A stretch of 64,000 nucleotides of DNA from Candidatus Woesearchaeota archaeon (GTDB lineage Archaea > Nanobdellota > Nanobdellia > Woesearchaeales > ARS49). The DNA lies in contig JAFCDQ010000003.1 in the NCBI GenBank assembly GCA_017609645.1, forward strand, positions 221,571 through 285,570. Reading direction: 5' to 3'. Shown here piece by piece: positions 25,906-51,300 of the stretch; the first letter of the stretch is position 1; every line of letters starts with the position of its first letter. The notes beneath the pieces are model-generated. The model was not told the origin of the DNA. It saw only the letters and a program-made list of their open reading frames with translations, and ran no database searches. The position numbers and the translations under genes were made by a program.

Positions 25906-26002
25906 AGAATATTGTAAGAAAATTGATTATAATAAAGCTGCGTATGTACTATATATACTATCAATAATTTTTTAAACAAAACACCACTTTAGCATATCAT
26001 AC

Positions 26003-26077
26003 GGGTCCTTAGCTCAGCCTGGCTAGAGCACTCGGCTCTTAACCGAGGGGTCGGGGGTTCGAATCCCCTAGGATCCG
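26003..26077 (+). tRNA. tRNA-Lys(CTT), no intron
   Basis: Acceptor GGGTCCT/AGGATCC, D stem GCTC/GAGC, anticodon stem CTCGG/CCGAG with CTT, TTCGAAT. Confidence 0.97.
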
Positions 26078-26101
26078 TATTTATTTTCAAAAAGAGGTCA
26101 A

Positions 26102-28648: not shown

Positions 28649-28816
28649 ATGTCTAAGTGTTCTTTTTGTAAAGATGATATTCCTCAAGGTACTGGAATTA
28701 TGTTTGTCAAGAAAGATGGCAAGATTTTATTTTTTTGCAGTTCTAAATGTGAACGAAATTTGTTAAAATTAAAAAGAAAAGCCCGAGAACAAAAATGGGT
28801 GGTGAAGAAAAAATGA
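28649..28816 (+). CDS. rpl24e: Ribosomal protein L24e (55 aa), not in ORF track
   Basis: MSKCSFCKDDIPQGTGIMFVKKDGKILFFCSSKCERNLLKLKRKAREQKWV. Confidence 0.95.
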   Translation: MSKCSFCKDDIPQGTGIMFVKKDGKILFFCSSKCERNLLKLKRKAREQKWVVKKK

Positions 28817-29388
28817 TGGAAAAATCTTTAGTTTTAATTAAGCCTGATGGAGTTCAGAGAGCTTTAATAGGAGATATAATTGCTAGGTTTGAAAAAGCTG
28901 GTTTCAAAGTTATTGGAATGAAGATGGTTTGGGCTGATAAAAAGCTTGCAGGAAAACATTATGCTGATGATGAAGCTTGGATGAAAAGTCTTGGCACTAA
29001 AACAAAAGCAGCTTATGAGAAAAAAGGCAAACCTCTGAAAGAAACTGCTGTTGAAGTAGGCAGAAGAATTAGAAAATTATTGATGGACTTTATTAGTATG
29101 TCTCCTTCTGTTGCTTTATGTATTGAAGGTCATGGCGCTATTGAAAAAATAAGAATTCTTGTTGGAGCTACTGCGCCTATTCTTGCTATGCCAGGCACCA
29201 TCCGAGGAGATCTTTCTTTTGATTCTTATGAGTTATCAGATGCTAGCGGCAGACCGTTACAGAATTTAATTCATGCTTCTGACAGTAAAGAAGCTGCTGA
29301 TAAAGAGATAAAAATTTGGTTTAAGAAAGAAGAGCTTCATCCTTACAAAAGAATTGATGAACCTTTATTATACAGAAAAGTTAAGTAG
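28813..29388 (+). CDS. ndk: Nucleoside diphosphate kinase, long form with internal insertion
   Basis: LIKPDGVQR, PGTIRGD, NLIHASDS; start overlaps the rpl24e stop (ATGA). Confidence 0.93.
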   Translation: MMEKSLVLIKPDGVQRALIGDIIARFEKAGFKVIGMKMVWADKKLAGKHYADDEAWMKSLGTKTKAAYEKKGKPLKETAVEVGRRIRKLLMDFISMSPSVALCIEGHGAIEKIRILVGATAPILAMPGTIRGDLSFDSYELSDASGRPLQNLIHASDSKEAADKEIKIWFKKEELHPYKRIDEPLLYRKVK

Positions 29389-29396
29389 GTGAAATA

Positions 29397-31586
29397 ATGG
29401 CTGCTGAAAAAAGTATTGATAAGATTAAAAGGCTTGCAAAAGATCCTGAGCATATCAGAAATATTGCAACTTGTGCGCATATTGACCATGGTAAAACTAC
29501 TTTCTCCGATAATCTTCTTTTCGGAGCAGGTATGATGTCTGAAGCTTTAGCAGGAAAACAATTAGCATTAGATTTTCATGAAGATGAAAAAGCTAGAGGT
29601 ATTACTATTGATTCTGCTTCTGTTAGTATGGTCCACGAGTTTGACGGTAAAGAATATTTGATTAATCTTATTGATACTCCAGGGCATGTTGATTTTGGCG
29701 GCGATGTTACTAGAGCTATGAGAGCTATTGACGGTGCTATTTTGTTAACTTGCGCTGTTGAAGGTGTTATGCCTCAGACAGAAACAGTTCTTAGACAAGC
29801 TTTGAAAGAGCGTGTCAAGCCTGTTCTTTTTATTAACAAAACTGATAGACTAATAACTCAGCAGCAATTAACTCCTGAAAAAATGCAGGAGCGTTTTGTT
29901 AAAATAATCACCGAAGTTAATACATTAATCAAAGATATTGCTCCTGAAGAATTTAAAGAGAAATGGCAGGTTAATGTTCAGGATGGAAGTGTTGCTTTTG
30001 GCAGTGCTTTTCATAATTGGGCTTTAAACATTCCATACATGCAGGAGAAAAGTATTACTTTCAAAGAAGTTTTAGATGCTTATGCTAATTCTAGCACTCC
30101 TGAAGAAGCAGGCAAGATTCTTGCAAAAAAAGCACCTATCCATGAGATTGTTTTAAACATGTGTATTAAGCATCATCCAAATCCTAAGGTAGCTCAAGAA
30201 TATAGAATTAAAAAATTGTGGCATGGTGATTTAGAAAGTAAAGATGGTAAATCTCTGCTATCTTGCGACCCTACAGGTCCTTTGTTTTATTGTCCGATTA
30301 AGATTGTTGTTGATCCTCAGGCAGGAGAGATCGCTATTGGAAGAATTTTTTCAGGCACTATGAATAAAGGAGATCATGTTTATCTTAACAGAAAAAAGAT
30401 ACCTGCGAGAATTCAGCAGATTTTTATTGTAAATGGTGCAAAAAGAGAGATTGTTGATTCTATTCCTGCAGGTAATGTTATTGGTATCGGCGGTGTTGCA
30501 ACTGCTGCAGGTGAGACAATTACTTATGAACCTTCAGAACCATTTGAAGAAATTGTTCATTTGTTCGAGCCTGTTATTACTAAAGCTATTGAAGCTACCA
30601 AACCTGCAGACCTTCCTAAACTTATTGAAGTTTTGAGAATTATTGTGAAAGAAGATCCTACATTAAAAGTTGAAATTAATGAAGAAACTGGCGAGCACTT
30701 ATTGCATGGTATGGGCGAGTTGCATCTTGAAATTATTGAAAACAGGATTAAGACAGAGAAAGGTGTTCAAGTAAAAACTAGTCCGCCTATTGTTGTTTAT
30801 AGAGAGACTGTTAGCAAGGATAGTGATATTTATGAAGGTAAAGCTCCTAATAAGCATAATAAACTTTATTTCAGGGTTGAACCTTTAGATGCTGCTGCTT
30901 ACAAAGCTATTAAGTCTGGTGAGATTAGAGAAGGCAGGAGTAAGAAAAAAGATATTGCACTCAGAGATAAGTTTGTTGAATGTGACTGGGATAGCAAAGA
31001 AGCAACTAATGTTAAAGATATTTTTAATGGAAATGTTTTTGTTGACTCTACCAGAGGTATTGTTGCTTTGCCTGAAGTTATCGACATGATTCTTGACATG
31101 TTTGAAGATGTTATGAAGTTTGGCCCTATTGCTAAAGAGCCTTGCATTAAGGTTAAAGTTGTTTTAACTGATGCAAAACTGCATGAAGACGGCATTCATA
31201 GAGGTCAAGGCCAGATGTATCCTGCTGTTCGTGATGGTATTAGAGCTGCGATGATGGGCGCTGCTCCTGTTTTATACGAGCCTTTACAGATTCATTTGAT
31301 TGAAGTTCCTGTTGATTATACAGGAGAAATCACAAAACTTGTGAGCAATAAAAGAGGACAGTTGCTTGAGATGAATCAAGAAGACACTCGAACTATGATT
31401 AAAGCTAAGATCCCTGTTGCAGAGATGCTTGGCTGGAGTAGTGATTTAAGGAGCGCTACTGCAGGCAGAGGTATTTCTAGTTTAATGGATCAGATGTTTG
31501 AGAAGCTTCCAATGGACTTGCAGAATAAGATCATTCAGCAGATTAAAACTAGAAAAGGTTTGAAAGAATCACAAGTCGGTGCATGA
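29397..31586 (+). CDS. fusA: Archaeal translation elongation factor 2
   Basis: AHIDHGKTT, RGITI, DTPGHVDFGG, NKTD, GMGELHLEI, diphthamide-loop His in HEDGIHRG. Confidence 0.97.
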   Translation: MAAEKSIDKIKRLAKDPEHIRNIATCAHIDHGKTTFSDNLLFGAGMMSEALAGKQLALDFHEDEKARGITIDSASVSMVHEFDGKEYLINLIDTPGHVDFGGDVTRAMRAIDGAILLTCAVEGVMPQTETVLRQALKERVKPVLFINKTDRLITQQQLTPEKMQERFVKIITEVNTLIKDIAPEEFKEKWQVNVQDGSVAFGSAFHNWALNIPYMQEKSITFKEVLDAYANSSTPEEAGKILAKKAPIHEIVLNMCIKHHPNPKVAQEYRIKKLWHGDLESKDGKSLLSCDPTGPLFYCPIKIVVDPQAGEIAIGRIFSGTMNKGDHVYLNRKKIPARIQQIFIVNGAKREIVDSIPAGNVIGIGGVATAAGETITYEPSEPFEEIVHLFEPVITKAIEATKPADLPKLIEVLRIIVKEDPTLKVEINEETGEHLLHGMGELHLEIIENRIKTEKGVQVKTSPPIVVYRETVSKDSDIYEGKAPNKHNKLYFRVEPLDAAAYKAIKSGEIREGRSKKKDIALRDKFVECDWDSKEATNVKDIFNGNVFVDSTRGIVALPEVIDMILDMFEDVMKFGPIAKEPCIKVKVVLTDAKLHEDGIHRGQGQMYPAVRDGIRAAMMGAAPVLYEPLQIHLIEVPVDYTGEITKLVSNKRGQLLEMNQEDTRTMIKAKIPVAEMLGWSSDLRSATAGRGISSLMDQMFEKLPMDLQNKIIQQIKTRKGLKESQVGA

Positions 31587-31600
31587 AGAAACACACTACA

Positions 31601-31630
31601 ACATTAATACGTGCCTTGTGCCTAAATTTA
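31601..31630 (+). repeat. Dispersed repeat, block B only
   Basis: ACATTAATACGTGCCTTGTGCCTAAATTTA; the 5' arm reads GTGC instead of GCAC. Confidence 0.85.
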
Positions 31631-31711
31631 ATATTTACTTTATGCTAAAGTAGTGAATTCAGAAAGTTTTTTATATTTTCTCATCTATAACTATCTTAAC
31701 ATTAAAAAAAT

Positions 31712-32725
31712 TTATTTGTATTTAAATTCTAGCTTTTTTTTTGCATGGCCCGCAGTTAATTCTCCTTTAAATACTGTAGCCCATACTTCTATTCCTGGTA
31801 AATCAATCACTTTTGATTCAATTCTTTTAAAGGAATTGTCTAAATCTCCTTTTTTATAATCTACACTCCTCTGACTTAATACTATTACCTCTACTGATGT
31901 AAGTGCAGAATCTGAAGTATTCGCTCCTAAGAAATATAATGGATAACTTAAGTTTTCAGATAAATAACTAACTTCAATAGGTTTATGCATTACATAAAAA
32001 GGAGCATTTCCATCTTGACTACAATCAAGATTAGCAACTAATCCTAAACCTTTAGCAGCAACCTCTAGTGGAAACATTTCTTCAGCCACATCCTTATTAA
32101 AATAACCGTTTCTATTTTGGCCACCCCATTCATTCCACATCATGAATTTAGACAAAGAATCAACACCATTAACATTAAATAAAGGACTTTCAGCACTTTT
32201 CAGAGAAGAAAGATGTAATTTTAAACAGACTAATTCCATTAGTTTTCCGTCGCTAATACTATACCTTCCATTAGGTAAACCAACCATTACATCAAAATAA
32301 GTATCATCTCCGCTGAAAGATAATTGATTAAAAGTCACAATCCTTCTCTTTCCACTGTGATGCTCATCATCCTTAATCAAAATCCTAGCCTGAGCAACAC
32401 CCTTATAAGGATCCTCATTATGTAGCTTATACTTTAATGAACCTCTAACATTACCTACTGGTTTTGGAGGTCTTGGAGGGGGAGCTCCACACATAATTAC
32501 ATCAGTCACTAATCCAGTCTTTCCTTCTTGAGATGCCATCACTTCCTTAATAGCATTCCCTAAATGAGAATCAAGTATTATTCTTTCTACTTCTCCTACC
32601 TTTAATTTTTTATCAACTAAATTCCACAATTTATGTTCAGTTAAGTATTTAGCTACTTCACCAAAACGTTCAACTAGAATTGGTCTAGTTGGTGTTTCAT
32701 AAAAAACAATATCTTTATCACCCAT
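31712..32725 (-). CDS. Hypothetical protein (orphan)
   Basis: 337-aa ORF, no motif recognised. Confidence 0.7.
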   Translation of the reverse strand: MGDKDIVFYETPTRPILVERFGEVAKYLTEHKLWNLVDKKLKVGEVERIILDSHLGNAIKEVMASQEGKTGLVTDVIMCGAPPPRPPKPVGNVRGSLKYKLHNEDPYKGVAQARILIKDDEHHSGKRRIVTFNQLSFSGDDTYFDVMVGLPNGRYSISDGKLMELVCLKLHLSSLKSAESPLFNVNGVDSLSKFMMWNEWGGQNRNGYFNKDVAEEMFPLEVAAKGLGLVANLDCSQDGNAPFYVMHKPIEVSYLSENLSYPLYFLGANTSDSALTSVEVIVLSQRSVDYKKGDLDNSFKRIESKVIDLPGIEVWATVFKGELTAGHAKKKLEFKYK

Positions 32726-32920
32726 AAAAAATCATCAAAAAAATATTAATAAAACCAATATATAAATGTATGTATTAAAGCTTAGACGCGGTCTACCCCA
32801 ACCTAATCCAAGGTATTGAAGATTTGACAGAAACTAGCAGGCCTTATAAACTTCTTGCAAAACAATTTAAAAATAATTTGAAAACTATTTTAAATAAATA
32901 CTCCTTTTTCTTTAAACAAA

Positions 32921-33352
32921 ATGAAAACAAACCTATGCCAATTCAAACACTTAAGCTGTTTTGGCTGTTGTGGCCATGATTGGAAAACTAAAGATCAAAT
33001 TCTTGAACAAATAAAGAAAAACACAATAAATTGGAAGAATCACAGCTTAAATAAATTCTATAAAGAAAGTGAAAAACATCTCTCAAGATGCGGCGGATGT
33101 AAAAGTCTTATACTAAAAAACAATAAAATTGTCTGCGCTCTCCACCCATTTCAAAATAAAGGCGATGATTTCAGGGATAAAAATTGTAATAAGAATTATT
33201 TTTGTCAAACATTTAAAGAATTCTTGAATTGGGATAAAAAAACACAAAATTCTTTCTTAAAATTCTTAAAAAACAAGAAAATTAGCCATCATGAATACAG
33301 CATGGGCATGGATTCTGGCAATTTTTTAGCAGAATTCACAAAATTTAAATAA
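32921..33352 (+). CDS. Cys-rich hypothetical protein, possible Zn or Fe-S binding
   Basis: CFGCCG, CGGC, CALHP, C..NYFC. Confidence 0.65.
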   Translation: MKTNLCQFKHLSCFGCCGHDWKTKDQILEQIKKNTINWKNHSLNKFYKESEKHLSRCGGCKSLILKNNKIVCALHPFQNKGDDFRDKNCNKNYFCQTFKEFLNWDKKTQNSFLKFLKNKKISHHEYSMGMDSGNFLAEFTKFK

Positions 33353-33374
33353 AATTCTCAAAAAACTCAAAACT

Positions 33375-34175
33375 ATGCAATTAGGATTAAAAGATAAAAA
33401 AATCATAGTAACTGGCGCAGCTAATGGCATTGGTAGCGCTATTTTTCAGGCTTTGTTAAAAGAAAAAGCTTTTCCTATAGGATTTGATTTTGAAGAATTA
33501 AGAAATTCTGAATTAGAAGAGAAAATTAAAGAGTATAAAATTTCAAATAATTTTGATTTTTTCCAAGCAGATGTTTGTGATGAAGAAAGATTGAATTATA
33601 TTTTTAAAACACATATTAAAGAGATAAGTGGTCTTGTTAATAATGCAGGTGTATTAGGAGGAGATGATGCACACGGAGGCAGAACTAATGCTGCGTGGGA
33701 TAAAATGCTTAATGCTCATGCAAAGTCAGCTTTTTTATTAACAGAACTATCTTATCCTAAAATGAATAATGGTTCTATAGTTAATATAGGTTCTATAGAA
33801 TTAGAAATGGCCGCTCCTGGTGTTGTTTTGTATACTGCTGCTAAAGGAGCACTTCTTGGTTTGACTGTTTCTTATTCTACTCATTTGGCTCCAAATATCA
33901 GAGTTAATATTGTTTCACCAGGAAATGTTAATACTAAAAGAAATCTTGCTCAATATAAAGAACATAAAGAATTAGTAGATGCTTTTGAAGAAAAAACGCC
34001 TCTAAAAAGAAGTGTTGAGCCAGAAGAAGTTGCTGATTTAGTATTATTTTTACTTTCAGACAAAGCGAAGGCAATTACTGGTCAAAACCATATAATCGAC
34101 TGTGGTTACACAAAGGCATTATGGGATCCTATTTGGTCCAAAAAAGATCTTAATGACGTCTATAAACAAGAATAA
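33375..34175 (+). CDS. Short-chain dehydrogenase/reductase
   Basis: TGAANGIG, NNAG, YTAAK, VNIVSPG, ITGQ...DCG. Confidence 0.92.
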   Translation: MQLGLKDKKIIVTGAANGIGSAIFQALLKEKAFPIGFDFEELRNSELEEKIKEYKISNNFDFFQADVCDEERLNYIFKTHIKEISGLVNNAGVLGGDDAHGGRTNAAWDKMLNAHAKSAFLLTELSYPKMNNGSIVNIGSIELEMAAPGVVLYTAAKGALLGLTVSYSTHLAPNIRVNIVSPGNVNTKRNLAQYKEHKELVDAFEEKTPLKRSVEPEEVADLVLFLLSDKAKAITGQNHIIDCGYTKALWDPIWSKKDLNDVYKQE

Positions 34176-34207
34176 CTATTTTTGCTTAAAATACCGCTTT
34201 TGAAACC

Positions 34208-34221
34208 AAAATGTTTATAAA
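34208..34221 (+). promoter_or_regulatory. BRE/TATA promoter of tuf-rps10
   Basis: AAAATG-TTTATAAA; GGAGG RBS before ATG 34275. Confidence 0.65.
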
Positions 34222-34274
34222 TGAATGCCCTAATTCTGAGTTAAAGATAAACAAACATATTAGGAGGGTAAAAT

Positions 34275-35567
34275 ATGGCTAAAACAAAACCACACATTAA
34301 CCTTGTATTCATTGGTCATGTAGACCATGGTAAATCTACAACCGTCGGCAGGTTACTTTTTGATTCAGGCAATATTGACGAGCAAGCTATTAGAAAGTTA
34401 AAGGAAAAAGCTGAAGAGCTTGGTAAAGGCGGATTTGAGTTCGCTTTTGTTATGGATAACTTGAAAGAAGAGAGAGAAAGAGGAGTCACTATTGACTTAG
34501 CTCACAAGAAATTCGAGTCTGACAAGTATGATTTCACAATTATTGACGCACCTGGTCACAGGGACTTTATTAAGAACATGATCACTGGCGCAAGCCAAGC
34601 TGATGCCGCTGTTCTTGTTGTTTCTGGTAATGCTAGTGACGGTGTACAAGCTCAAACTAAAGAGCACGCATTTCTGGCAAAGACTCTTGGTGTTAGTCAA
34701 ATTATCGTAGCTGTTAATAAGATGGATATGGTAAAGTATGATGAAAAGAGATTTGAAGAAGTTAAAAAACAAGTTTCTGATCTATTGAAGATGGTTGGTT
34801 ATAAAATTGAAGAAATCCAATTTCTTCCAATTGCAGCTCTTCCAGGAGATAATCTTGCTAAGAAATCTGAGAATTTTGGATGGTTTAAAGGTCCAACTCT
34901 TTTAGAGGCTATTAACAACTTGAAAGAACCTGAAAAGCCAACTGAGCTTCCTTTAAGACTTCCTATCCAGGATGTTTACAAGATCTCTGGTATTGGAACT
35001 GTTCCTGTAGGAAGAGTCGAAACAGGTGTTATGAAGGTAGGTCAAAAGATTACTGTTGTTCCTGCTAGAGAAGGCAAAGGTGTTACAGGAGAAGTTAAGA
35101 GTATTGAGATGCACCATGAACAATTACAGCAAGCAGAGCCTGGTGATAATATTGGATTTAATGTCAGAGGCATTGAGCAAAAGGATATTGCAAGAGGAGA
35201 TGTTATCGGTAGTGCTGATAATGTTCCAACTATTGCAACTGAGTTCACAGCCAGAATGATTATTTTAAATCATCCAACTGTTGTGACTGTTGGCTACACT
35301 CCTGTGTTCCATATTCACACTGCTCAGATTGCATGTCAAATTACTGAGATTATCAGAAAGATAAATCCTGCTACTGGTGAAACTCTTGAAGAAAAGCCAG
35401 ACTTTGTTAAGAATGGTGATGCTTGCGAAGTAAGGATTAGACCTACATCTGCTTTGGTTATTGAAAAGCAGTCTGAAATTCCTCAACTGGCTAGATTCGC
35501 TGTGCGTGATTCTGGTCAGACAGTCGCTGCCGGTATGTGCATCGATTTAGTAAAGAAAGACATATAA
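34275..35567 (+). CDS. tuf: Archaeal translation elongation factor 1-alpha
   Basis: [46 protein letters not shown]. Confidence 0.98.
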
Positions 35568-35600
35568 AATAAATTTTTTATTTTATTTTGATAGGTTAAA

Positions 35601-35912
35601 ATGCAAAAGGCAAGAATTAAGTTAGCTAGTATCGACATTAACAAGTTAAACCAAACTTGTGACTTTATTACTAATATAGCTGAAAAAACAGGTGTTGAGA
35701 TTCGCGGTCCAATTCCTTTGCCTACTAAAAAATTAAAGGTTACAACTAGACGTTCTCCTTGCGGCAATGGTGCCGAGACTTTTGAAAGATTTGAGATGAG
35801 AATTCATAAGAGATTAATAGATTTAGGACTTGATGAAAGAGCATTAAGATTAGTTATGAGAGTACCTATACCTGAGGGTTTGAATATTGAGATTGAGATG
35901 ATCGATGTTTAA
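35601..35912 (+). CDS. rps10: Ribosomal protein S10 (uS10)
   Basis: [42 protein letters not shown]. Confidence 0.97.
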
Positions 35913-36174: not shown

Positions 36175-37305
36175 ATGGATAATATAGAAGAATCTGAACA
36201 AATAAAACCTAAAAAGAGATATCATTTTGACAAAATTCTATTCATAATTCTTTTAATTCTTGTTGCTTTATTTGTTAGAAAATATATTGCTTCTCAAAGT
36301 ACTGAACTTTTGCCTGATAAAACTGAAGAAATTACTAGTATAATAAATTTAGATGATGTTGCTGAAGATATCAGTATTGAAGACAGGGAAATTAATGTTG
36401 ATGTCATTCATCATAAAGATTGTTTTAAGTGTTTTGCTACTGAACACGTTTTAGATTATTTAATTAAGAAAGGTTTGAATTTAACTATTAAAGAAAATTA
36501 TATTCAGGATTCTGAGGAATATGCAGAACTTGTTGAAAAATTAGGTATTACTAAGCTTCCTGTTGTCGTATTAAGTGGAAACTTAAAAGGTTTGGATAAT
36601 ATTTTAACTGTCTTTGAAAAAAGAGATGAGTATCTTATTTTTGAAGCTGCAGAACCTGCTTTCTATTACATTCCGTCTAAAAAATTCATTGGTTATGTTG
36701 ACTTGATTTATTTGAAAGATAAAGAGTGTAAAGTTTGTTCTAAATTAGGAGCTTTTATTGAAGATATGGATACTAAAATGGGCGTTACTTTTACTGAGAA
36801 AAAAGCAGTTTATCCTGATTCAAAAGAAGGTAAAGAACTTATCAAAAAATATAATATAAAGAAAGTGCCTTCTTTAATATTCACGAGAGAATTACTGGAA
36901 TATTCTTATATTGCTAAAAGCTGGGATAAGATTGGAAGTATTGAAAGTGACGGAGCACTAGTTTTAAGGGAGATTACTCCTCCTTATAAAAATCCTCAGA
37001 CAGGTGAGGTAGAAGGTATTGTTGACGTCACTGTTTTGATTGATTCTTCATGCACTGATTGTTTAGATATTGCAAAAGTAGTAGAACAAGTAAAAACAAA
37101 GTATAAGCTTGTTTTTGGCATTTCAAAAACTGTTGATGTTAAGTCTGAAGAAGGCAAAGAACTTATCAAAAAATACAGTATAGAAAAAGCTCCTACTTTC
37201 ATTTTCTCAGACAATGCTAAACTTTATCCTGGTTTGATGATGGAGTGGGAGAAAAAACTGGGAGTTTTAGCTGAAGACGGTAAATTTGTTTTTACGAAGA
37301 TTTAA
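36175..37305 (+). CDS. Membrane-anchored protein with three thioredoxin-like domains
   Basis: N-terminal TM; CFKC, CKVC and CTDC each followed by ELIxKYxIxKxP. Confidence 0.78.
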   Translation: MDNIEESEQIKPKKRYHFDKILFIILLILVALFVRKYIASQSTELLPDKTEEITSIINLDDVAEDISIEDREINVDVIHHKDCFKCFATEHVLDYLIKKGLNLTIKENYIQDSEEYAELVEKLGITKLPVVVLSGNLKGLDNILTVFEKRDEYLIFEAAEPAFYYIPSKKFIGYVDLIYLKDKECKVCSKLGAFIEDMDTKMGVTFTEKKAVYPDSKEGKELIKKYNIKKVPSLIFTRELLEYSYIAKSWDKIGSIESDGALVLREITPPYKNPQTGEVEGIVDVTVLIDSSCTDCLDIAKVVEQVKTKYKLVFGISKTVDVKSEEGKELIKKYSIEKAPTFIFSDNAKLYPGLMMEWEKKLGVLAEDGKFVFTKI

Positions 37306-39321: not shown

Positions 39322-39498
39322 AGTTATACAAATAGTAGATGGATTTTATAAAATTTTGGTAAAATGATATCTATATATTCTGCGCCAAAAAGGCGCACTT
39401 TAGTTTAATCAAAGAACCTAAATTTCCTTCTCAAAACCATATCACTTTCCCACAATAGTGAATAAACCATTTATACTCATAAGTATAAATACTAAACC

Positions 39499-40095
39499 AT
39501 GTCAGCTTTTGCTATATCAAAATGGTTTATCTGGCCTTTGCTTAGAATTTTTATTAGAAAAATTGACGGTATCAAAAACATTCCTAAAGGCCCTTGTGTT
39601 GTTGTATGCAATCATGCGAGTTTAATTGACGGGGTAATTCTCACATTTTTGTTTGCTTGGCATAAAAAAAGATTAAGGTCTATTCTTACAAAAAAACATT
39701 TCAATAATTGGTTTTGGAATTTAGTATTAGTTAAATGGGGGAAAGCAATAAGAGTTAATGGTTCTGTTCATGAAGCTATCAAAGCATTGAAAAAAGGAGA
39801 TTATATAGTGATTTTTCCAGAAGGTAAAAGAACTTATACAGGCAAAATTGGAAAAGTAAAACATACTGGTTCAGGAATGTTAGCGTTACTGACAAAAAAA
39901 TCAATTCTGCCTGTTGCCATGAATACTTTTAATTGGTGGAACAGACATCATAAATTTCCAAATTTCAAGAGAAATATTAAAATAATTATAGGCAAACCTA
40001 AGAAATATAATTTAAAATCTACAAAAGCTAATGCAAAGAAAGTAACTGACGCTGTCATGAAAGAGGTGAAGAAGTTAAAATGCATGATTTCCTGA
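39499..40095 (+). CDS. plsC: 1-acyl-sn-glycerol-3-phosphate acyltransferase family (PlsC-like)
   Basis: NHASLID (HxxxxD) and FPEGKRT motifs. Confidence 0.85.
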   Translation: MSAFAISKWFIWPLLRIFIRKIDGIKNIPKGPCVVVCNHASLIDGVILTFLFAWHKKRLRSILTKKHFNNWFWNLVLVKWGKAIRVNGSVHEAIKALKKGDYIVIFPEGKRTYTGKIGKVKHTGSGMLALLTKKSILPVAMNTFNWWNRHHKFPNFKRNIKIIIGKPKKYNLKSTKANAKKVTDAVMKEVKKLKCMIS

Positions 40096-41528
40096 ATATT
40101 GAACAATTAACTAGTCTGACTTTTGAAGACATTGAAGCGATGCAGAATATTAAATTTAGGGCAGCTGCGCATCATCTTCTTCCAAGAACTAAATTTTATA
40201 AAGAATTGTTCAAAAAATATAAAGTAGATTTCAAAAAAATTAATGGCGTCGAAGATTGGCTAAAACAAGGTCTTCCTTTAATTAAAAAATCTGTTTATAT
40301 GAAGCGTTTCAAGGATTTTATTGTCAAGCCTGATTTAAATAGTCATTTGAAATATCTTGCAGGTCTTCATCAATTTGGAAAAATTACAAGCACTATCGGG
40401 GATGTTATTAAAAAAAATGCTAAAGAAAATTTAATGCAGTATTATCATCCTAAGATGATTTTGTTTAGTACAGGAACTGAAAGCGGCATGCCAACTCCTG
40501 TGATGATTACTGCTATTCAAAAACAAAAGATTTTGCCAGAGCTTATGAAGATAATTTATCAGATTACTCCTGAATTAAAAACAAAAACCGCTATGAATTT
40601 ATTTCCTTACGGCCCGCATCTTGCTTGGCACAGTACGCATATTGGTTTTGAAGTTGCAGCAGATCTTAATTTATGCACTGCTGCCGGCGGAGCAATGCGG
40701 ACTGAAAATCTTGTAAAATTAGCAAATGACACAAAGCCTAATATTTTTGCAGGTATGTCTTCTTATTTAAGGCAAAGATTTTTGCCAGAATGTAAAAAAC
40801 AAAAGATTAAGCTTCCTGAGAAAGTTATTTTCATTAATGGCGCTTCTAAGATGCTTGAGGCTGAAAGAGATGATATTAATAAAATGGCTAAAAAACTTGG
40901 TGTGAAGAATTGTTTAGTTCTTGATTGTTTTGGCGCTAGTGAATTAAAAGAAGATATTATGCCTGAGTGCATGCCTGGCTCAGGTTTTCATCATATTGCA
41001 CCTTTATCTAATATAATTAAGACAGTTAGTTTCAAAAGAGCTGAAAAAGATTATATTCATGATTGGGAGTTTGCGGATGAAGGTTATGCTGCGAATTGGA
41101 ATATTGATGGGGGAGGTACTTTATTGCAGGGTTATGTTCTTGGTGATAAATTTTCAGGGATTTTAAAGAAAAGATGCCCGCAGTGTTATCTTAACGTTGT
41201 CAGAATAAAAAGTATTGATAGAATCCGTGATGTTGAAGCGCAATTATCACTTTTTGGTTTTGTTGAAGCAAAAGTTAAAGGAACAAGAATTAATCTTTCT
41301 GCTCTTAGAAACAAACTTTTATCTCAAAAAAATATTAAAGAAGTGCAAATCGTCGCTGAAAAAGATAAATTAACAATTTTTATTGTTCCTGAAACAAGCA
41401 GAGTTGCTTTGCAAAAAGTTAAGCAAGTTCTAAAAGCATTAGAAGTTACCCCTCAAATTAAAACAGTTAAAATGAAAAATTTACTGACAGATAAGATAAA
41501 GTTTGAAGGCATCATAATTAAATCTTAA
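40080..41528 (+). CDS. Adenylate-forming CoA ligase, phenylacetate-CoA ligase (PaaK)-like
   Basis: FSTGTESG.P loop, NLFPYGPH, FGASE, LGD; overlaps the plsC 3' end. Confidence 0.72.
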   Translation: MHDFLNIEQLTSLTFEDIEAMQNIKFRAAAHHLLPRTKFYKELFKKYKVDFKKINGVEDWLKQGLPLIKKSVYMKRFKDFIVKPDLNSHLKYLAGLHQFGKITSTIGDVIKKNAKENLMQYYHPKMILFSTGTESGMPTPVMITAIQKQKILPELMKIIYQITPELKTKTAMNLFPYGPHLAWHSTHIGFEVAADLNLCTAAGGAMRTENLVKLANDTKPNIFAGMSSYLRQRFLPECKKQKIKLPEKVIFINGASKMLEAERDDINKMAKKLGVKNCLVLDCFGASELKEDIMPECMPGSGFHHIAPLSNIIKTVSFKRAEKDYIHDWEFADEGYAANWNIDGGGTLLQGYVLGDKFSGILKKRCPQCYLNVVRIKSIDRIRDVEAQLSLFGFVEAKVKGTRINLSALRNKLLSQKNIKEVQIVAEKDKLTIFIVPETSRVALQKVKQVLKALEVTPQIKTVKMKNLLTDKIKFEGIIIKS

Positions 41529-41582: not shown

Positions 41583-42137
41583 ATGGGGTGGAAAGATACT
41601 TTTGACAAGTTGAAATTGCAGTTTATTAATACAAAGAGCGCTTTTCTTGAATTGAACAAAGAAAAAGGCATTACTAATGCGTTCATATTCTTGGTCATTC
41701 TTATCATTGCTTATAAAATCATCAGTTATGCCGCTGTTTATGTTTTATCAGCAGTTTTGAAGTTAAAGTCTTTTCAAGTGCCTGTGTATGATTTCACAGA
41801 TCATTTCATTTCTTTTATTTATATGATTGTAGGCAGTTTCTTGATTGTTTTGCTGCTTCATGCATTTATCAAATGGTTCAAAGGTAAAGCTAATCTCGCC
41901 AGTACTTATAAAATCTTTATTTACAGTATCTGGCCTTATCTGCTATTAAGACCTATTCCTATTGTTGGAAGGCTTGCAGAAGCTCTTTCATTGTTTTTTT
42001 ACATCGTAGGCGTTTGTTATATTCATAAATTAAAGCCTATTCCTGCTTTTTTCACTTTTTTCATTCCTTTAGCTTTAATTGGAGCGCTTATTTTTTATTT
42101 GTCACTCAAATCAATTTATTTGTTTGGAGGAGTCTAA
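41583..42137 (+). CDS. Yip1-like membrane protein
   Basis: About five TM segments; KGKANLASTYKIFIYS..P pattern. Confidence 0.65.
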   Translation: MGWKDTFDKLKLQFINTKSAFLELNKEKGITNAFIFLVILIIAYKIISYAAVYVLSAVLKLKSFQVPVYDFTDHFISFIYMIVGSFLIVLLLHAFIKWFKGKANLASTYKIFIYSIWPYLLLRPIPIVGRLAEALSLFFYIVGVCYIHKLKPIPAFFTFFIPLALIGALIFYLSLKSIYLFGGV

Positions 42138-42548
42138 ATGGGTTTTATAGGAGTTATTTTATCAGGTTTGTTGCTTGCAATCATAGCAACTGCATTCATG
42201 GTATTGCTTAACTCTGGCATAATTCATTTAGTTACTTTGTTTTTAGAATTCAAAAATATTACTTACAAAAAATCTTTTTTCTTTGCGTTTTTCGTCGGTA
42301 TTTTTAATCTTGCATTATCCTTGCTTGTTATTCCGTTCAAGAATTTTGTGCTGATATTGCAAATTATTGGCTTGATTGCTTTTGTTTTCATTAATTATTT
42401 TATTGCTTCAAAGATTTATGAAAAAGAATCAAAAAAACAAAGAATGCTGCTTGTTGCTGTTTTGCTGATATTTTCAATTGCGATTAATTTTTTGATTACT
42501 TTTTTGATTACTATTTTGTTTAAATCTTTAAGGTTTGGTTTGGTTTAA
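42138..42548 (+). CDS. Hypothetical membrane protein (4 TM)
   Basis: Almost entirely hydrophobic; starts immediately after the previous stop. Confidence 0.65.
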   Translation: MGFIGVILSGLLLAIIATAFMVLLNSGIIHLVTLFLEFKNITYKKSFFFAFFVGIFNLALSLLVIPFKNFVLILQIIGLIAFVFINYFIASKIYEKESKKQRMLLVAVLLIFSIAINFLITFLITILFKSLRFGLV

Positions 42549-45333: not shown

Positions 45334-48300
45334 ATGACAAAAATATTTAAAAAAGGGGGGTTATTGTTTTTCTTCTTATTACTCACAGCCATCTCTGTCT
45401 CTGCAATTACAGATACTGTGTTTAGTGATATTGATGGAGATGGTGATCTTGATATTTATTTAGAAACAGTAATTGAAAATAATGCAGGTGTTTTTTATAA
45501 TAGAACAAATGCTAGCGGCATTCCTTTGTTTAATGATTTAATTAAAGGCCATTTTGTTGATTTTAACGGAGATGGCAGGGAAGATTTGTATATTGTTCGT
45601 GACAACGCTGTTAATCAGCTTTATTTGAGAAATGCTTCTGTTAGTAATTGGAATTTTACAAATTATACTAATTCAGTTATTGGCCAAAGATTAAGAGGAA
45701 AAGCAGGAAGTCCTGTTGCTGCTGTTTTTGCTGACTTCACTAATGATGGTAATATTGATGCTTTTGTTAATGGAGAATTATGGCTTACAACTACTACTAA
45801 TTTTGATTTTAATGCCACAAACAGGTCTAATGTTGATGAAATGCCTAATTTAGTTTGGGTTAAAGCTAAAGATGTTAATTTAGATAATCTAACCGATATT
45901 ATTGGAACAACGGCAATTGGAAAAATGGTTGTTTATTTAAGCTTAGGAGATACAAATAATGATGAGGCTCCTGAATTTTATCCTGCAGAAGTTGATATAG
46001 GTTTGAGTTTTGAACAAAATATTTCATTTGTTGAAGTTGGAAATATTGAAACAGGTCTTGCTTATAACAGCAGTTTGAATTATTATCCGTTTGTGAACGA
46101 TACTCCTCCTTTTGTTCTTGATAAGTTCGAGGATTTTTATTTAGTTAAAGAAAATGAAACAAATGTTCTTTATACACAGCTTTGGCCTCAGCTTCCTGAA
46201 AAGTTTTCTACAATTAACACAAGTGATTTTTATCTTCCTCAATTATTTAATTTGCGACCAACTAGTGTTAATGATTCTAGGAATGGAAGTATGGCGATTA
46301 TGGCTGATTTTGACAATAACACTTTTGTGGATATCTTAGTTGCTAATCATGATAATGAAAGTTTGATTATGTTAAGAAATGGTTCTAGTTGGTCACAGGA
46401 ATTTGTTGATAGCCAAGCTAGATTCAACACAACTACAAATATCAAACTTATTGAAACTGTTGATTTGAATAATGATGGTGAACTTGATTTTGCAATTATT
46501 GATCCGCAAGAAATTAGTTTGCAACAACTTCCTGTTTCTGGTTCTAGTGATGTGAGTATTCCTGCTGGTGAACCCTGCACTCTTGATCCCTTGAATACTT
46601 TTGGTGATACAGAAGTAGAAGATTTTACTGAAATGGAAGAATTTGCTGAAGGAGCAGCAATTCCAAGTCTTACTTTTGAAGAAGAAACAGCACCTTTGAC
46701 TTCAGGTTATCCTGAGGTAAATATTAATTTTCCAACTCATGAAGAATTTTCAGCTAATCCTCCTGCTCTTGCAGAAATAGAAGGAGATTCTATTGGTTAT
46801 GTTACTGAGCAAGAAGATGGAACTTGTACTGAAACAATTGATGGTGGAGAATATGATGTTGACGCAGGAACTAAAGAATTAAACGATGGTGAAATTAATA
46901 AAGAACCTAGTCCGCCTCCTCCTGTTGTTGTTGGCCCTCCTACTATAGGAGGCCCTGGTGGTAGAATTAACGTTATTCAATTCAAAATAATTTGTTGTGA
47001 CCCTAAGACAGGAACTTTTGAAGAGTTTATGCTAACTCAAGAATTTAAAGAAGTTTTAGGAAGTGTTTTTACTGGCATCCAACCGCCTGCTGAAATGCCT
47101 TTGCCGCCTGGCGGAATTTTGCTTGAAGCACAGCAAAGTTTTGGTGATAATTGTGTCCAAGTTGGCGAGAATTATGTGTTGCAAGGACAAGGCGGTCCTA
47201 GTATTGAGAATTGGATGTCTGCTCAGCTTGCTTGTATGCCTAAGATAACTGAAAGAGAACCTCCTGAATTTTTTGATGAAATTCCTGGAGATTTTGAAGA
47301 TGAAGAAGTTCGTAAGCCCAAGCCAAGAATCACAAGAACTGGCTTAGAATGTATTTGCCCTCCTGAAATAACATATTGTGATGACGATATTTGCGGCGAT
47401 ATTAATTCTTTTTGTACTGGTGAACAAATTAGTGTTGGTCCTTGTGGGGGTTGTGGCGTCAAGCCGGCTGCTCAAGTTACAAAGATTTTGAGAGATATTA
47501 TTTTGCCTCAGCAAGCTACTTTTGATGCAGAGCATTTGAAATGGGAACCTCCTAGTGATAAGATTGGTCCTATTAAACCAAAAACAAAACCTCCTGTTCC
47601 AGAAGCTCCTACTAAGATGAGCACTACTCCTAAACCTCCTAATTTAATGATTGAAGAAGTTTTTGTTTGGAAAATTTCATATCCTGAAGAAGAACCTATC
47701 GCTGCGGTTGCTGCTGAGACTGCTTTAACTGCTGATTCCATTTCTGTTGAAATGAGTGAGTTAGCAGAAGATATTATTTCGCCAGAAGTAGCTGTTACAG
47801 AAGTTAGTGCTGTTAGTATTACTGGCGCCGCTATTTCTGATATTGTGCAAGAAGAAAGAACAATTGTAAATGAAGTTACTGATATTGAAATCAGTCCAAT
47901 TTTATTTGAAAAAGAAAACTTAGTTGTTGTTGATAATACTCCTCTTGATTTAAGGGTGTTTATGCCTAGTGAAGAAGATGAACTTAATGATTTGATTGAT
48001 CTTGTTACTGTTGATGAAGCGGATTTGTTAAGTGATAAAGATCTTGAACAAGTTAAGTCTGAATTAAGAAAATTAGGTATGGAATTATTGCATGAGCAAA
48101 ATGATTTGCATTCTGTTAGTTTGATTTGTTTAACAGAGTTAAAAACTAAACTTGATGATGTTTCTGAGAAAGAAGGTTTGATTCCTCCTGGTAAGGCAGA
48201 TGCTGCTATTAATGATATTTCTGATGTTCTTGTTAACAGCGCATCTAGTTTAGATATTGCTAATTCTAAAGATAAATTAACTGCAAGTATTGGTGTTGTT

Positions 48301-51300
48301 GAGAATTATGTTAATGAAGTCAAGCCATATAATGATCTGAAAGATACTTTGAACAGCTTTAAGGCAAAATCCGAACTTTCTGGGCAGTTTAATTATGATT
48401 CTTTTATGAAATTAAGTGAAATTAAAGAATTAACAAATGATTTGTATGATGAAGATTTGAATAATGATTTAGAAAAGTTAAATGATTTGATTTTTGCTAA
48501 CAAAGTTGATGATGCTAAAGGATCGTTGAAAAAGTTTGCTGAAAAGTATGAAGATGTTTTGTTAAATCATTACAGCAAAAAGATTGATAGTTCAATTGCT
48601 GACTTTAAAGATGCAGTTGCTTTTGCTGATTATGAACAGCTTATTTCAGCATCTAGTGCTATTAGTGATTTTGTTGATAAGAATCAAGGCAATAATAAGA
48701 TTGCTAGATTATTGCAGGGTATCGAAAGCGATATGTTGAACAAAAATGATATTAGCAATAAATTAGTTAGTTTAAGCGAGCTTATTTCTTCTGATGCTAC
48801 GGAGATTCCTGAACTTAATGACGGCTTGATGAGGTTAGGTGAAAAGCTAAATGATAATGATATTCAAGGCGTTCTTGATGAAGTTTCTGGAATGAAAAAG
48901 CAGGCCAAGAATTCTTGTTTTATTAGTGACGGCCAGCCAATTGTTTATGAGTATTTCACCCAGGATTTCGAGTTAGCAAATAAGCAGATTCAGGAAAAGA
49001 TGAAAAAAGCTAGTGAGACTGTTTCTGAGTTATATACAATTGTTGCCAAGCTAATGGGCCAGGTTGATGATGAAGATGAGGATTATGATTTATCAGATCT
49101 TAAGTTCGAGATGTATGACAAAATCAAAGAAAGCAGTTCATTCTTCTTTTTCAAGAATCAGTATTTTGAAGATTTGAAGTTATTGTTCAAGTTATCTCCT
49201 GTTTATTCTTATATGAAAGATTTGAGAACTGCTATTTTTTCAGTTTCTGAAGAACTTAATAGTTTAGATGTTGTTAAGCCAGAGCAGATTGATTATTATA
49301 ATGACCGGCTTGATAAGATCATGGCAGGCATTAATTCTTTGCGTGCTGTTTTGTTAAGCCAGTCTGGTAAAAATATTGATTTAGCTTTATCTCCTTATTT
49401 CACAGGAGCTATTGATGAAGGAACTCTTGATGTCAGAGTGTCTGACAGAGCTCATGCATTGACTGCTGAGATCATGGATAAAGTTGATAATGATGTTCCT
49501 GTTAGTGATGCAGCTCGTGCTGCAAATATTCTTGCTGAAACTTTTGAAAAAGAAATTCCTGAAGTTAAAGATTTAACAGAGCCTTCTTTTGAAAAGTATG
49601 AAGAAAAAGAGAAAATTGCTGAAGCTAAAGATTTGCTTGAGAAAGAGTTGAAACAAGATGAGTTTAGTAAAGAACAAGCAAAGATTGCTGATATTAAGAA
49701 AGAGATTTTTGCAAAGACAGAAGAGAGGAAGTTAGCTGATGAGTTAGCTGCTGTTTCTGATAAAATTACAGACGTTAGTGTTAAAGAAACGCTTGCTGAA
49801 GAAGTTGCTGAAGAAGAAAAGGCAGAGGAAGAAAAAGCTGAGCCAGAAGAAAAGAAGAAAAAGAAAGAAGAAGAGAAATTTAGTAAAGAAGAAAAGCTTG
49901 CTATGGAGAAATTCTATAACAAAGGTATGTATGCGTTTAAGAATGAAGATTATAAAGATGCGATTAAGAATTTTGGAGAGTATTTGCGGATTAATCCTTT
50001 GAATGCAGATGTGTTATGGCATACTGCTGATTCTTTGAAAAATGTTGAAGAGAATTATTTAAGCACAAAAACTGCTGAAGCTGTTGAGAAAGTTAAGGAT
50101 TGGAAAGAGTTTGTTCAAACTTTAGAAGAAATCGAAGGAACTCCTGAAGAAAAGGTTTCTAAGTTTGTTTCAGAAGTTCAGGAAAAGGTTGAAGCTCCTT
50201 CGTCTAGGTTTATTGAGCCTGCTGCTTATGTTTTGCTTGACATGACTGACTGCTTTACAGAACCTTTGCAGGAGTTTGTTGTTGAAGGTAAGATTTACAA
50301 TTTCTATGGTGTTAAAGAAGAAGTTGATGAACAAGGAGCAGTGAAATACTTTATTGAAGCTACTCCTAATGATAAAATTGAGACTGTTACATTCGAGATT
50401 CCTGAATTGATTAGTACTTTGAAAGAGCAGATTGGTTTTTGTAAAGTTGATGAAACAGAAGAAGAAAAGAAACCTCCTAAACCTACGCCGACAAATGATG
50501 ATTTTGCTCAGGCTTTGGCTAATGATCAAGCTAGGAAGTCTACTTCTCCAGATGGAGAAGAACAAGTTTGTATGGAAGTTGAATCTGATGTTTCTGCTTT
50601 GTCTAGTGTGATTGATGTTCAAAAAACTACAGCAGAAGTTTGCGCTCCTTATGATGATGTTGCTGCATTAAGTGACTTTAAAGAACCTGACAAAGAGATT
50701 AAACTATTTGAAGAGATGAAATTCCCAACTCTTGAGCCTGACTTTGAATTATTAAAACAAAGTAATGTTCGTGAGAATTTGTATGATATTTATAGAATAA
50801 CTCAGGTGCTAAATATTGTTGGTGATTATCAGCTTGATTCTGGCGAGAGTAAGTTGTTTGTTCTTGGTGATAATCTCTTTGAAACTGTGAAAGTTAGGAG
50901 AAAAGTTAGCAGAAAATTCCTTAATACCTTAGAAAAAATGGATTATACACCTCCTCCTAAATGTTCTTTCAAAGGAGGATCAGCAACTTGCACTCAATTT
51001 GATCAATGCGTTGTTATTAAAGGCAAATTAACTTGCTCTAAAAGTTTTTCAGAAAAAGATTGTACAGAAGTTGAAGGGAAATGGATTTGTGAAGGTTATA
51101 ATGAATGCAAAAAAGAAGGTGAAGAAATAATTTGTGAGCAAAGACTAAAAGAAGACTGCATTTTTGGCAGAGATGCGGAAGGTAATATTGTTGTCGAACA
51201 GTGCGAAGGTTTTGAAGAAGGTGAATGTAAGATTAATGATGAAAGTGAAATTGAATGTGAATCTTCAAGTGTAGAAATTCCTAGTGATTGTGAAAGAGTA

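Follow-up and report, generated by a model that had tools for sequence, protein, structure and literature searches.

In a 64,000-nucleotide stretch of DNA from a Candidatus Woesearchaeota archaeon (contig JAFCDQ010000003.1, positions 221,571 to 285,570 of the forward strand; hereafter, the window), we tentatively define a three-gene module that may salvage acyl chains and re-attach them to lipids in lipid-auxotrophic Woesearchaeota. The module consists of a PlsC-like acyltransferase (AT; protein P0001), an overlapping gene for a PaaK-fold adenylate-forming ligase (P0002), and a divergently transcribed transporter of the major facilitator superfamily (MFS; P0003). Based on sequence comparison, predicted structures and analogy, we consider the chances to be about even that this module is a functional analogue, and not an orthologue, of the bacterial LplT/Aas system for lysophospholipid transport and re-acylation, encoded by the lplT-aas operon in Escherichia coli (PMC11416262). 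This interpretation draws on the folds and intact catalytic motifs of the two enzymes, the coupling of their genes, the conservation of the module among relatives, a genome in which genes of lipid synthesis went undetected, and the tie between related ATs and glycerol-3-phosphate (G3P) chemistry in other members of the order.

The acyltransferase P0001 belongs to the LPLAT/AGPAT superfamily. It matches PF01553 with a score of 72.4 bits against a cut-off of 23, and combines an N-terminal amphipathic helix with the HX4D motif I (NHASLID, residues 39-44), motif III (FPEGKR(T), residues 106-111) and the proline of motif IV (Pro138). Among 21 aligned members of the AT family, residues H39, D44, P107, E108, G109 and P138 never vary, and at least 90% of the sequences retain R111. 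The only sequence match in the Protein Data Bank is PlsC from Thermotoga maritima (5KYM), with E=5e-10 for P0001 alone and 3.6e-21 for the family profile. The same structure is the top Foldseek match of the AlphaFold2 (AF2) model (pLDDT 86.8; TM 0.73, E=6e-10), with PatA, GPAT and LpxM well behind, and the model has the PlsC-type alpha/beta fold. The Pfam match and the conserved motifs thus bear out the intact HxxxxD/FPEG acyltransferase that had been proposed in the initial annotation.

The second enzyme, P0002, is predicted to be a PaaK-type ligase of the ANL superfamily, although the curated sequence models do not recognize it as such. No Pfam family matches the protein, including the AMP-binding family PF00501, and the NCBIfam models give N-terminal matches only (FlxY, 32 bits against a cut-off of 520; PaaK equivalog, 17.3 against 700). 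A single-sequence phmmer search of 1.84 billion representatives, performed with no word-index prefilter, returned only 144 relatives at E<=0.001, the more distant of which bear AMP-binding and AMP-binding_C_2 domains. A profile built from 48 family sequences matches PaaK from Bacteroides thetaiotaomicron (4r1l, E=3e-69), and the AF2 model (pLDDT 89) aligns by Foldseek with PaaK1 (2y27) and BT_0428 (4rvn) at TM 0.71 and 0.79, respectively (E ~1e-22, 17% identity). The core motifs A3, A5, A7, A8 and A10 can be recognized on the two-domain fold, including the P-loop FSTGTESGMPTP, which has one extra residue, FGASE (E288), GD (D356), the hinge region KVKGTRINL, and Lys474. Across 48 ligase homologues G132 of the P-loop, E288, D356 and R381 do not vary, and at least 90% of the sequences have K474. 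Residues 366-369 of the protein form a CPxC zinc-knuckle, a helical insertion occupies residues ~85-125, and the family carries the signature NLFPYxPHLAW in place of the glycine-rich stretch that lines the pocket of PaaK. Judging from sequence and model together, the fold and the chemistry (acid and ATP to acyl-AMP) are well supported, and the PaaK-like ligase foreseen by the initial annotation stands. The wider family was also considered as a source of clues to the ligase substrate, and this approach was abandoned: in the nearest outside clade, which is 30-34% identical and comes mostly from Thor- and Hermodarchaeota with a small number of bacteria, none of 80 loci has an AT, MFS or ADP-forming acyl-CoA synthetase (ACD) gene within 6 kb, and the conserved neighbors (thermosome, radical SAM, AIR-synthase-like, DUF169) are uninformative. 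The protein atlas yielded only generic AMP-binding and Atg22-like clusters.

The two enzyme genes are physically coupled. The ligase start codon (ATG at 40080) lies within the last codons of the AT gene, which stops at 40093-40095, and a Shine-Dalgarno-like GAGGTGA is located ~11 nt upstream of this start codon; translational coupling through the overlap is therefore predicted. Conservation of the arrangement was assessed in the family of the source genome (family f1; the source genome G000 and 24 other genomes) and in a sample of 401 genomes of the order. The family tallies include the unpublished genome G011, and the order sample includes unpublished genomes as well (G155 and G231 in the ligase tally, and ten in the GpsA tally); conclusions never rest on unpublished genomes alone, and related genomes are not independent samples. 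Of the loci compared, a single one (L007, from G011) came from an unpublished genome, and it figured solely in a synteny check. Within the family, the AT is found in 13 of the 25 genomes, the ligase in 14, the MFS transporter in 15, and all three in 11, with a further genome (G001) having the AT and the ligase at a contig end. The MFS gene divergent from AT and ligase is syntenic in G000 and at least ten relatives, where the AT and ligase genes overlap by 4-23 nt.

Beyond this family, close ligase homologues in the order sample are confined to f1 (six of the seven genomes besides G000) and f13. More distant homologues repeat the pairing in the f13 genome G036, where the order is reversed, with the ligase preceding the AT beside a serine hydrolase. 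This hydrolase gene (PF06821; L023:5680-6228), divergent from the pair, could be a deacylase partner in a cycle of deacylation and re-acylation. A distant AT-ligase pair (24% identity) occurs in G266 (f90), with another MFS gene 0.9 kb upstream, and G098 (f75) has a distant ligase homologue divergent from a P0003-like MFS gene. In G025 (f2; contig G025:C14, L046:4421-6901) AMP-binding, PP-binding and Acyltransferase domains are fused in a single protein of 826 aa, a Rosetta stone that connects an AT of this kind with acyl activation; a FabH-like ketosynthase is encoded 1 kb upstream of this tri-domain gene. These recurring pairings, together with the fusion, make a functional link between AT and ligase far more likely than chance, as judged by comparative genomics. 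That the genes are chance neighbors, or that one of them is decaying, is thus a very remote prospect, for which one may cite the shortened ligase of some relatives, and which is effectively refuted by the retention of adjacency and overlap in at least 13 genomes of at least four families, at 24-75% protein identity and with invariant catalytic residues.

The genomic background of the module was analyzed next to the module itself. The source genome comprises 1.125 Mb in 4 contigs (~31% GC) and is 90% complete, so that negative gene searches in it are limited by this completeness and are not proof of absence. For its small-subunit ribosomal RNA (SSU rRNA) the archaeal model gives 1442 bits and the bacterial one 1094, and the named homologues of P0001 and P0002 are "Candidatus Woesearchaeota archaeon" entries; these results identify the host as a Woesearchaeota-type DPANN archaeon, as had been assumed. 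We found no genes for geranylgeranyl diphosphate (GGPP) synthase, fatty-acid synthesis or beta-oxidation in G000, and GpsA, CarS/CdsA and CDP-alcohol phosphatidyltransferase were not found there either, the latter two being present in the relatives G009, G013 and G017. Searches by tblastn with the proteins of a relative gave no match in G000 for thiolase, acyl-CoA dehydrogenase, electron-transfer flavoprotein (ETF) or desaturase. In all five module-bearing genomes searched, PcrB/GGGPS, PlsY and PP-binding domains or acyl carrier protein (ACP) were not found. Searches of G000-G006 for canonical AMP-binding enzymes (PF00501), glycerol-1-phosphate dehydrogenase and polyprenyl synthase were likewise negative. 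The sole UbiA-family gene of G000 (L135:3150-4013, contig C1) was rejected as a candidate digeranylgeranylglyceryl phosphate (DGGGP) synthase, with 197 bits for decaprenyl-phosphate phosphoribosyltransferase against 34 bits for DGGGP synthase; it adjoins a gene resembling aromatic amino acid transporters. Within its 90%-complete assembly, G000 thus has no route to acyl chains, to isoprenoid chains or to either glycerol-phosphate backbone, and the only lipid-directed transferase and acyl-activating enzyme detected in it are P0001 and P0002. The genome-wide search for plsY, gpsA and fatty-acid genes that had been suggested as a check on the original proposal thus found none of them.

In the order as a whole the AT family keeps different company. 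GpsA was found in 105 of the 401 sampled genomes, and at 14 of the 22 GpsA loci examined, from many families of Woesearchaeales, one to three co-oriented AT genes immediately precede GpsA (AT-AT-GpsA; L022, L024, L026-L039). In G033 the AT-AT-GpsA genes are preceded by genes for ETF alpha and beta, acyl-CoA dehydrogenase, a short-chain dehydrogenase/reductase (SDR) and thiolase, and a further AT paralogue of this genome lies between a match to CTP_transf_1-type cytidylyltransferases and a CDP-alcohol phosphatidyltransferase gene. Two side observations concern these loci: a fatty-acid desaturase gene is located near the AT-AT-GpsA locus of G039, and a FabG-like short-chain dehydrogenase in our window (33375-34175; adh_short_C2, E=8e-49) is the sole match in G000 (28% identity) to the proteins of the G033 fatty-acid cluster. 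The AT-AT-GpsA operons and the G025 fusion tie the AT family to glycerolipid acylation. In the AT tree the GpsA-linked proteins form two positional paralogue clades (support 99/91 and 96/91), neither of which includes the ligase-linked ATs; the long bacterial and Aas branches leave the root uncertain. Assignment of P0001 as the GPAT-like or the LPAAT-like paralogue of these operons was rejected in view of this position and the uncertain root. The phylogeny that had been proposed as a check on the AT places P0001, which is ~30% identical to the GpsA-linked paralogues, in the same family and outside both of their clades. By these comparisons, the AT family is firmly tied to the chemistry of G3P ester lipids, with the lineage of P0001 as a separate, specialized branch.

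Combining these results, we propose the following model for acyl-chain salvage. The PaaK-fold ligase would adenylate a carboxylic acid of exogenous or host origin, in all likelihood a fatty acid, and release acyl-CoA or possibly hand on the acyl-adenylate directly; acyl-CoA is the carrier proposed because no ACP was found. The coupled, membrane-peripheral AT would then move the acyl group onto a free hydroxyl of a glycerolipid-type acceptor, and the divergently transcribed MFS transporter would bring the acid or a lysolipid across or into the membrane. As an acceptor, a scavenged lysolipid would be likelier than lysophosphatidic acid (LPA), because motif II of PlsC and the G3P pathway are missing. 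What we infer in this model is which acid is activated, which carrier takes up the acyl group, which acceptor receives it and what the transporter carries. The initial annotation had in essence proposed that scavenged acyl chains are taken up, activated and transferred, and it is partly supported by the conserved, partly coupled module, by the lack of detected genes for acyl-chain synthesis and ACP, and by the AT paralogues found with GpsA. As for the nature of the chain, the pocket motif of the ligase differs from that of PaaK and points to neither a fatty nor an aryl acid. A bolder extension, which we regard as possible and on balance doubtful, is that members of family f1 keep ester-linked phospholipids of the bacterial type by pure salvage, with the module serving as a minimal Lands-cycle-like machine that re-acylates the lysolipids of a partner.

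Several observations weigh against the salvage model, the first group of which concerns the acceptor. In an alignment with paralogues and bacterial sequences, the module ATs of family f1 are deleted over motif II of PlsC and read IRV-NGS, and the arginine of IRV is not kept among relatives (IKE, IPT). In the same alignment the GpsA-linked paralogues of the "prox" type and a bacterial PlsC have IPxDR, and those of the "dist" type have IPV and a longer loop. The motif II arginine of PlsB and PlsC helps to bind glycerol-phosphate, according to mutational work. The loss of this motif, and a lineage outside both GpsA-linked clades, imply that the acceptor of P0001 may not be a phospholipid precursor. 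In our alignment the motif II arginine is missing from E. coli Aas as well, an enzyme whose acceptors are lysophospholipids and not LPA. Further, the ether lipids of an archaeal host would offer no obvious site for re-acylation. The initial annotation of P0001 as a bacterial-type PlsC is not sustained in the strict sense of an LPA acyltransferase: in addition to the missing motif II and the position outside the GpsA-linked clades, the PlsC model TIGR00530 gives 55.3 bits against a cut-off of 102.95, with the Aas-type NCBIfam models about equal, and partners that would supply LPA were not found in G000. P0001 is thus probably not PlsC sensu stricto (1-acyl-G3P acyltransferase).

These data bear directly on the alternative that the module performs de novo-type phosphatidate synthesis on salvaged building blocks, with the AT as a true G3P or LPA acyltransferase that carries out one or both acylations with ligase-made acyl-CoA, in a reduced form of the AT-AT-GpsA pathway. 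The membership of P0001 in the same family as the GpsA-linked paralogues (30% identity), the CarS/CdsA-like and CDP-alcohol phosphatidyltransferase genes that G009, G013 and G017 retain for head groups, and the GpsA homologue in G017 and G407 speak for it. We nevertheless consider this alternative rather improbable, as G000 has a single AT and no GpsA, PlsY, CarS/CdsA or CDP-alcohol transferase was found there, motif II is deleted, and neither GpsA-linked clade contains the module ATs.

A second group of unfavorable observations concerns the ligase and the transporter. To judge from structure titles, the substrates known for PaaK-family enzymes are small aryl or branched acids rather than fatty acids with long chains, and some relatives (NatL2, AjiA1) form esters without CoA. 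In genomes of the G006 type the ligase has only ~393 aa (L017, G006:C1 6724-7908; P0027, P0275) and lacks the whole C-terminal ANL subdomain that bears the catalytic lysine; the shortened open reading frame (ORF) of G006 ends where ACD alpha starts, and a separate C-terminal ANL piece was not found elsewhere in this 100% complete genome. The transporter is Atg22/UMF1-like and, unlike the E. coli counterpart, is not recognizable as LplT (best BLASTP E 0.084). Finally, in G012 (C23:210-3011) ACD beta and MFS genes diverge from ACD alpha with neither AT nor ligase, so that the MFS cargo may relate to ACD, for instance as organic acids.

The ligase data suggest another alternative, namely that the MFS transporter imports a small acid of aryl, branched or hydroxy type for activation by P0002, and that the AT esterifies an acceptor other than a membrane lipid, such as a glycolipid, polysaccharide, small metabolite or surface-protein anchor. 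All solved relatives of the ligase use small aromatic or branched acids (PaaK, 2-hydroxyisobutyryl-CoA ligase, NatL2, AjiA1, ClxA), the best NCBIfam match of P0002 is FlxY from the synthesis of flexirubin pigments, and the AT lacks motif II and lies outside the GpsA-linked clades. On the other hand, the signature NLFPYxPHLAW is unlike the pocket motif of PaaK, which makes aryl-acid specificity non-transferable, the nearest relatives of the AT in both fold and sequence are glycerolipid acyltransferases, and no pigment, polyketide or glycosyltransferase genes lie beside the module in the relatives examined. We regard this alternative as unlikely, while giving it somewhat more credit than phosphatidate synthesis.

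The ACD genes have a different relationship to the module. P0004, encoded next to P0003, is the ACD beta subunit, and the alpha subunit (Succ_CoA_lig, E=8.7e-54) is encoded elsewhere in G000 (G000:C2:208700-209107), 52 kb from the beta gene. In six relatives (G006, G013, G017, G182, G407 and G020) ACD beta and MFS genes diverge from a series of AT, ligase and ACD alpha genes, in which ACD alpha lies directly downstream and overlaps the ligase. In G004, G008, G009 and G037 the ACD genes form a divergent pair of their own away from the module. By gene order, the simplest reading is that the module looks like one ancestral insertion into the divergent ACD gene pair, and ACD is probably tied to it by history or regulation. 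ACD as a functional partner was accordingly down-weighted, in view of its standalone pair in the latter four genomes and the G012 locus; the link with ACD beta seems to reflect that insertion and not a pathway step, although a functional tie may exist.

One may still ask whether the locus as a whole serves an energy metabolism of carboxylates and CoA esters, in which the MFS transporter moves organic acids for ACD, the acyl-CoA pool is supplied or kept in balance by the ligase, and the AT merely travels along. Such a role would fit the overlap of ACD beta with the MFS gene, the overlap of ACD alpha with the 3' end of the ligase in the six genomes, which represent five genera, the arrangement retained in G012, and the co-occurrence of ACD with the ligase in 12 of 14 genomes of family f1. 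It would also entail a futile cycle, if an AMP-forming ligase and an ADP-forming synthetase acted on the same acid; the module and the ACD pair are unlinked in G004, G008 and G009, the ligase occurs with no detected ACD in G003, G010 and G036, and the AT-ligase pair is the tightest and most widely conserved link, with the reservation that the genomes are related. We therefore consider this explanation improbable, and retain acyl-chain salvage as the favored reading.

Coordinates of the module and its immediate neighbors are summarized in Table 1. The 16-nt overlap of the AT and ligase ORFs is exactly as initially annotated, and the divergent MFS and ACD beta neighbors are confirmed by the domain matches on the opposite strand; the ACD beta gene overlaps the 3' end of the MFS gene by 16 nt.

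Table 1. Module genes and adjacent features in the window (positions count from the first nucleotide of the window).
Feature	Coordinates	Strand	Basis
ADP-forming acyl-CoA synthetase (ACD) beta subunit, P0004, 210 aa	37520..38152	-	ATP-grasp_5 PF13549 E=2.2e-46
MFS transporter, Atg22/UMF1-like, P0003, 394 aa	38137..39321	-	MFS_1 E=1e-38, ATG22 E=3.3e-26
MFS/AT divergent intergenic region, 177 bp	39322..39498	.	read from sequence
PlsC-like (LPLAT/AGPAT superfamily) acyltransferase, P0001, 198 aa	39499..40095	+	PF01553 E=3.9e-20
AT/ligase overlap, 16 nt	40080..40095	+	read from sequence
Divergent PaaK-fold adenylate-forming (ANL superfamily) ligase, P0002, 482 aa	40080..41528	+	family profile, AF2 fold

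The intergenic region contains TATA-like boxes ~25-30 nt before each start, TTTTATAAAA at 39345-39354 for the MFS gene and TTTATA ~30 nt before the AT start codon, which from their typical archaeal spacing are putative promoters. A perfect hairpin (GCGCC-AAAAA-GGCGC) at 39383-39397 in the same region may act as a site for a regulator or as an RNA element. Two downstream genes were considered as module components and rejected: the Yip1-domain protein (41583-42137) has its own TATA-like box and was not refound near the ligase in relatives, and the small membrane protein (42138-42548) was refound only in a genome of the same genus, 1.9 kb from the ligase. On the other side, a 376-aa protein with several thioredoxin-like domains is encoded at 36175-37305 and has homologues near the module in six relatives (L014-L019). 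Genes for NDK, EF-2, EF-1alpha and ribosomal protein S10 at 28795-35912, together with tRNA-Lys(CTT) at 26002-26078, form a housekeeping block that confirms an ordinary archaeal chromosomal context. In the last part of the window (42796-64000), a gene for a beta-helix protein of 845 aa (Beta_helix/NosD) precedes two giant ORFs, one with 2257 aa (45334-52107) and the other with at least 3967 aa (from 52100 to beyond the window end). They resemble the very large surface proteins that are characteristic of DPANN symbionts; the GC skew is strongly positive in this part.

Most DPANN archaea lack lipid synthesis, and how they acquire and tailor their membranes has been analyzed in only a few co-cultures. 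With three genes, the module is a compact candidate for lipid salvage that can readily be cloned, in a lineage where it appears to supply the sole lipid-directed acyl or alkyl transferase. If the ligase activates fatty acids with which the AT re-acylates lysolipids, ester lipids would arise in an archaeon by salvage rather than by synthesis. If salvage is the only source of such lipids, this would point to bacterial hosts or lipid sources, or to mixed membranes, in a DPANN lineage, and to an independently assembled counterpart of LplT/Aas. The salvage model would also widen the substrate range of the PaaK family and provide a genetic marker of lipid-dependent symbiosis for environmental genomes. 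If the acceptor is not a lipid, the pair would define a new archaeal acylation pathway.

Comparison with characterized systems shows both resemblances and differences. P0001 resembles T. maritima PlsC (5KYM), its best match in sequence and fold (23-24% identity), in keeping HX4D, EGxR and the motif IV proline. It differs in its length of 198 aa, in having one short N-terminal helix instead of a two-helix membrane motif, in the deletion of motif II, and in its setting, as the G3P pathway partners were not found in G000. P0002 shares with PaaK (B. cenocepacia PaaK1, 2Y27; BT_0428, 4R1L) the two-domain fold, P-loop, (Y/F)GxxE, GD, KxKG hinge and C-terminal lysine, and with BT_0428 the Cys/His positions that include the CPxC knuckle. 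Unlike PaaK, to which it is 17% identical, it has the helical insertion at ~85-125, an extra acidic residue in the P-loop (GTESG) and the pocket motif NLFPYxPHLAW; no paa genes accompany it, and the strict P0002 family is nearly confined to one family of Woesearchaeales.

Homologues of PlsC and GpsA in DPANN archaea and Woesearchaeota are known at the survey level (PMC6431249, PMC5059525), and our literature search, which was not exhaustive, found only such survey-level reports and no description of the ligase-coupled module. In contrast to the AT-AT-GpsA operons, P0001 is a single-copy protein of a third lineage, coupled to a ligase and an MFS transporter in genomes with no detected fatty-acid genes. 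The tri-domain protein of G025 is a further variation, with a canonical FadD-like adenylation domain, an in-cis carrier and an AT domain weakly similar to P0001 (E=8.6e-4).

The closest functional parallel is the LplT/Aas system. Orthology with it was rejected, since the comparisons of MFS and ligase are non-significant and only the AT domains align. The PaaK-fold P0002 has no significant similarity to the Aas ligase and is not FadD/Aas-like, AT and ligase are encoded by separate overlapping genes instead of one fused protein, ACP was not detected in G000 (with PP-binding domains in none of the five module-bearing genomes), and the host is an archaeon that, unlike E. coli, has no outer membrane. 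In common with LplT/Aas, the module brings together an MFS transporter, a PlsC-type AT and an ANL adenylating enzyme in adjacent genes, and P0001 aligns with the AT domain of E. coli Aas at 26% identity over 136 aa (pairwise E=5e-10), both proteins being devoid of the motif II arginine.

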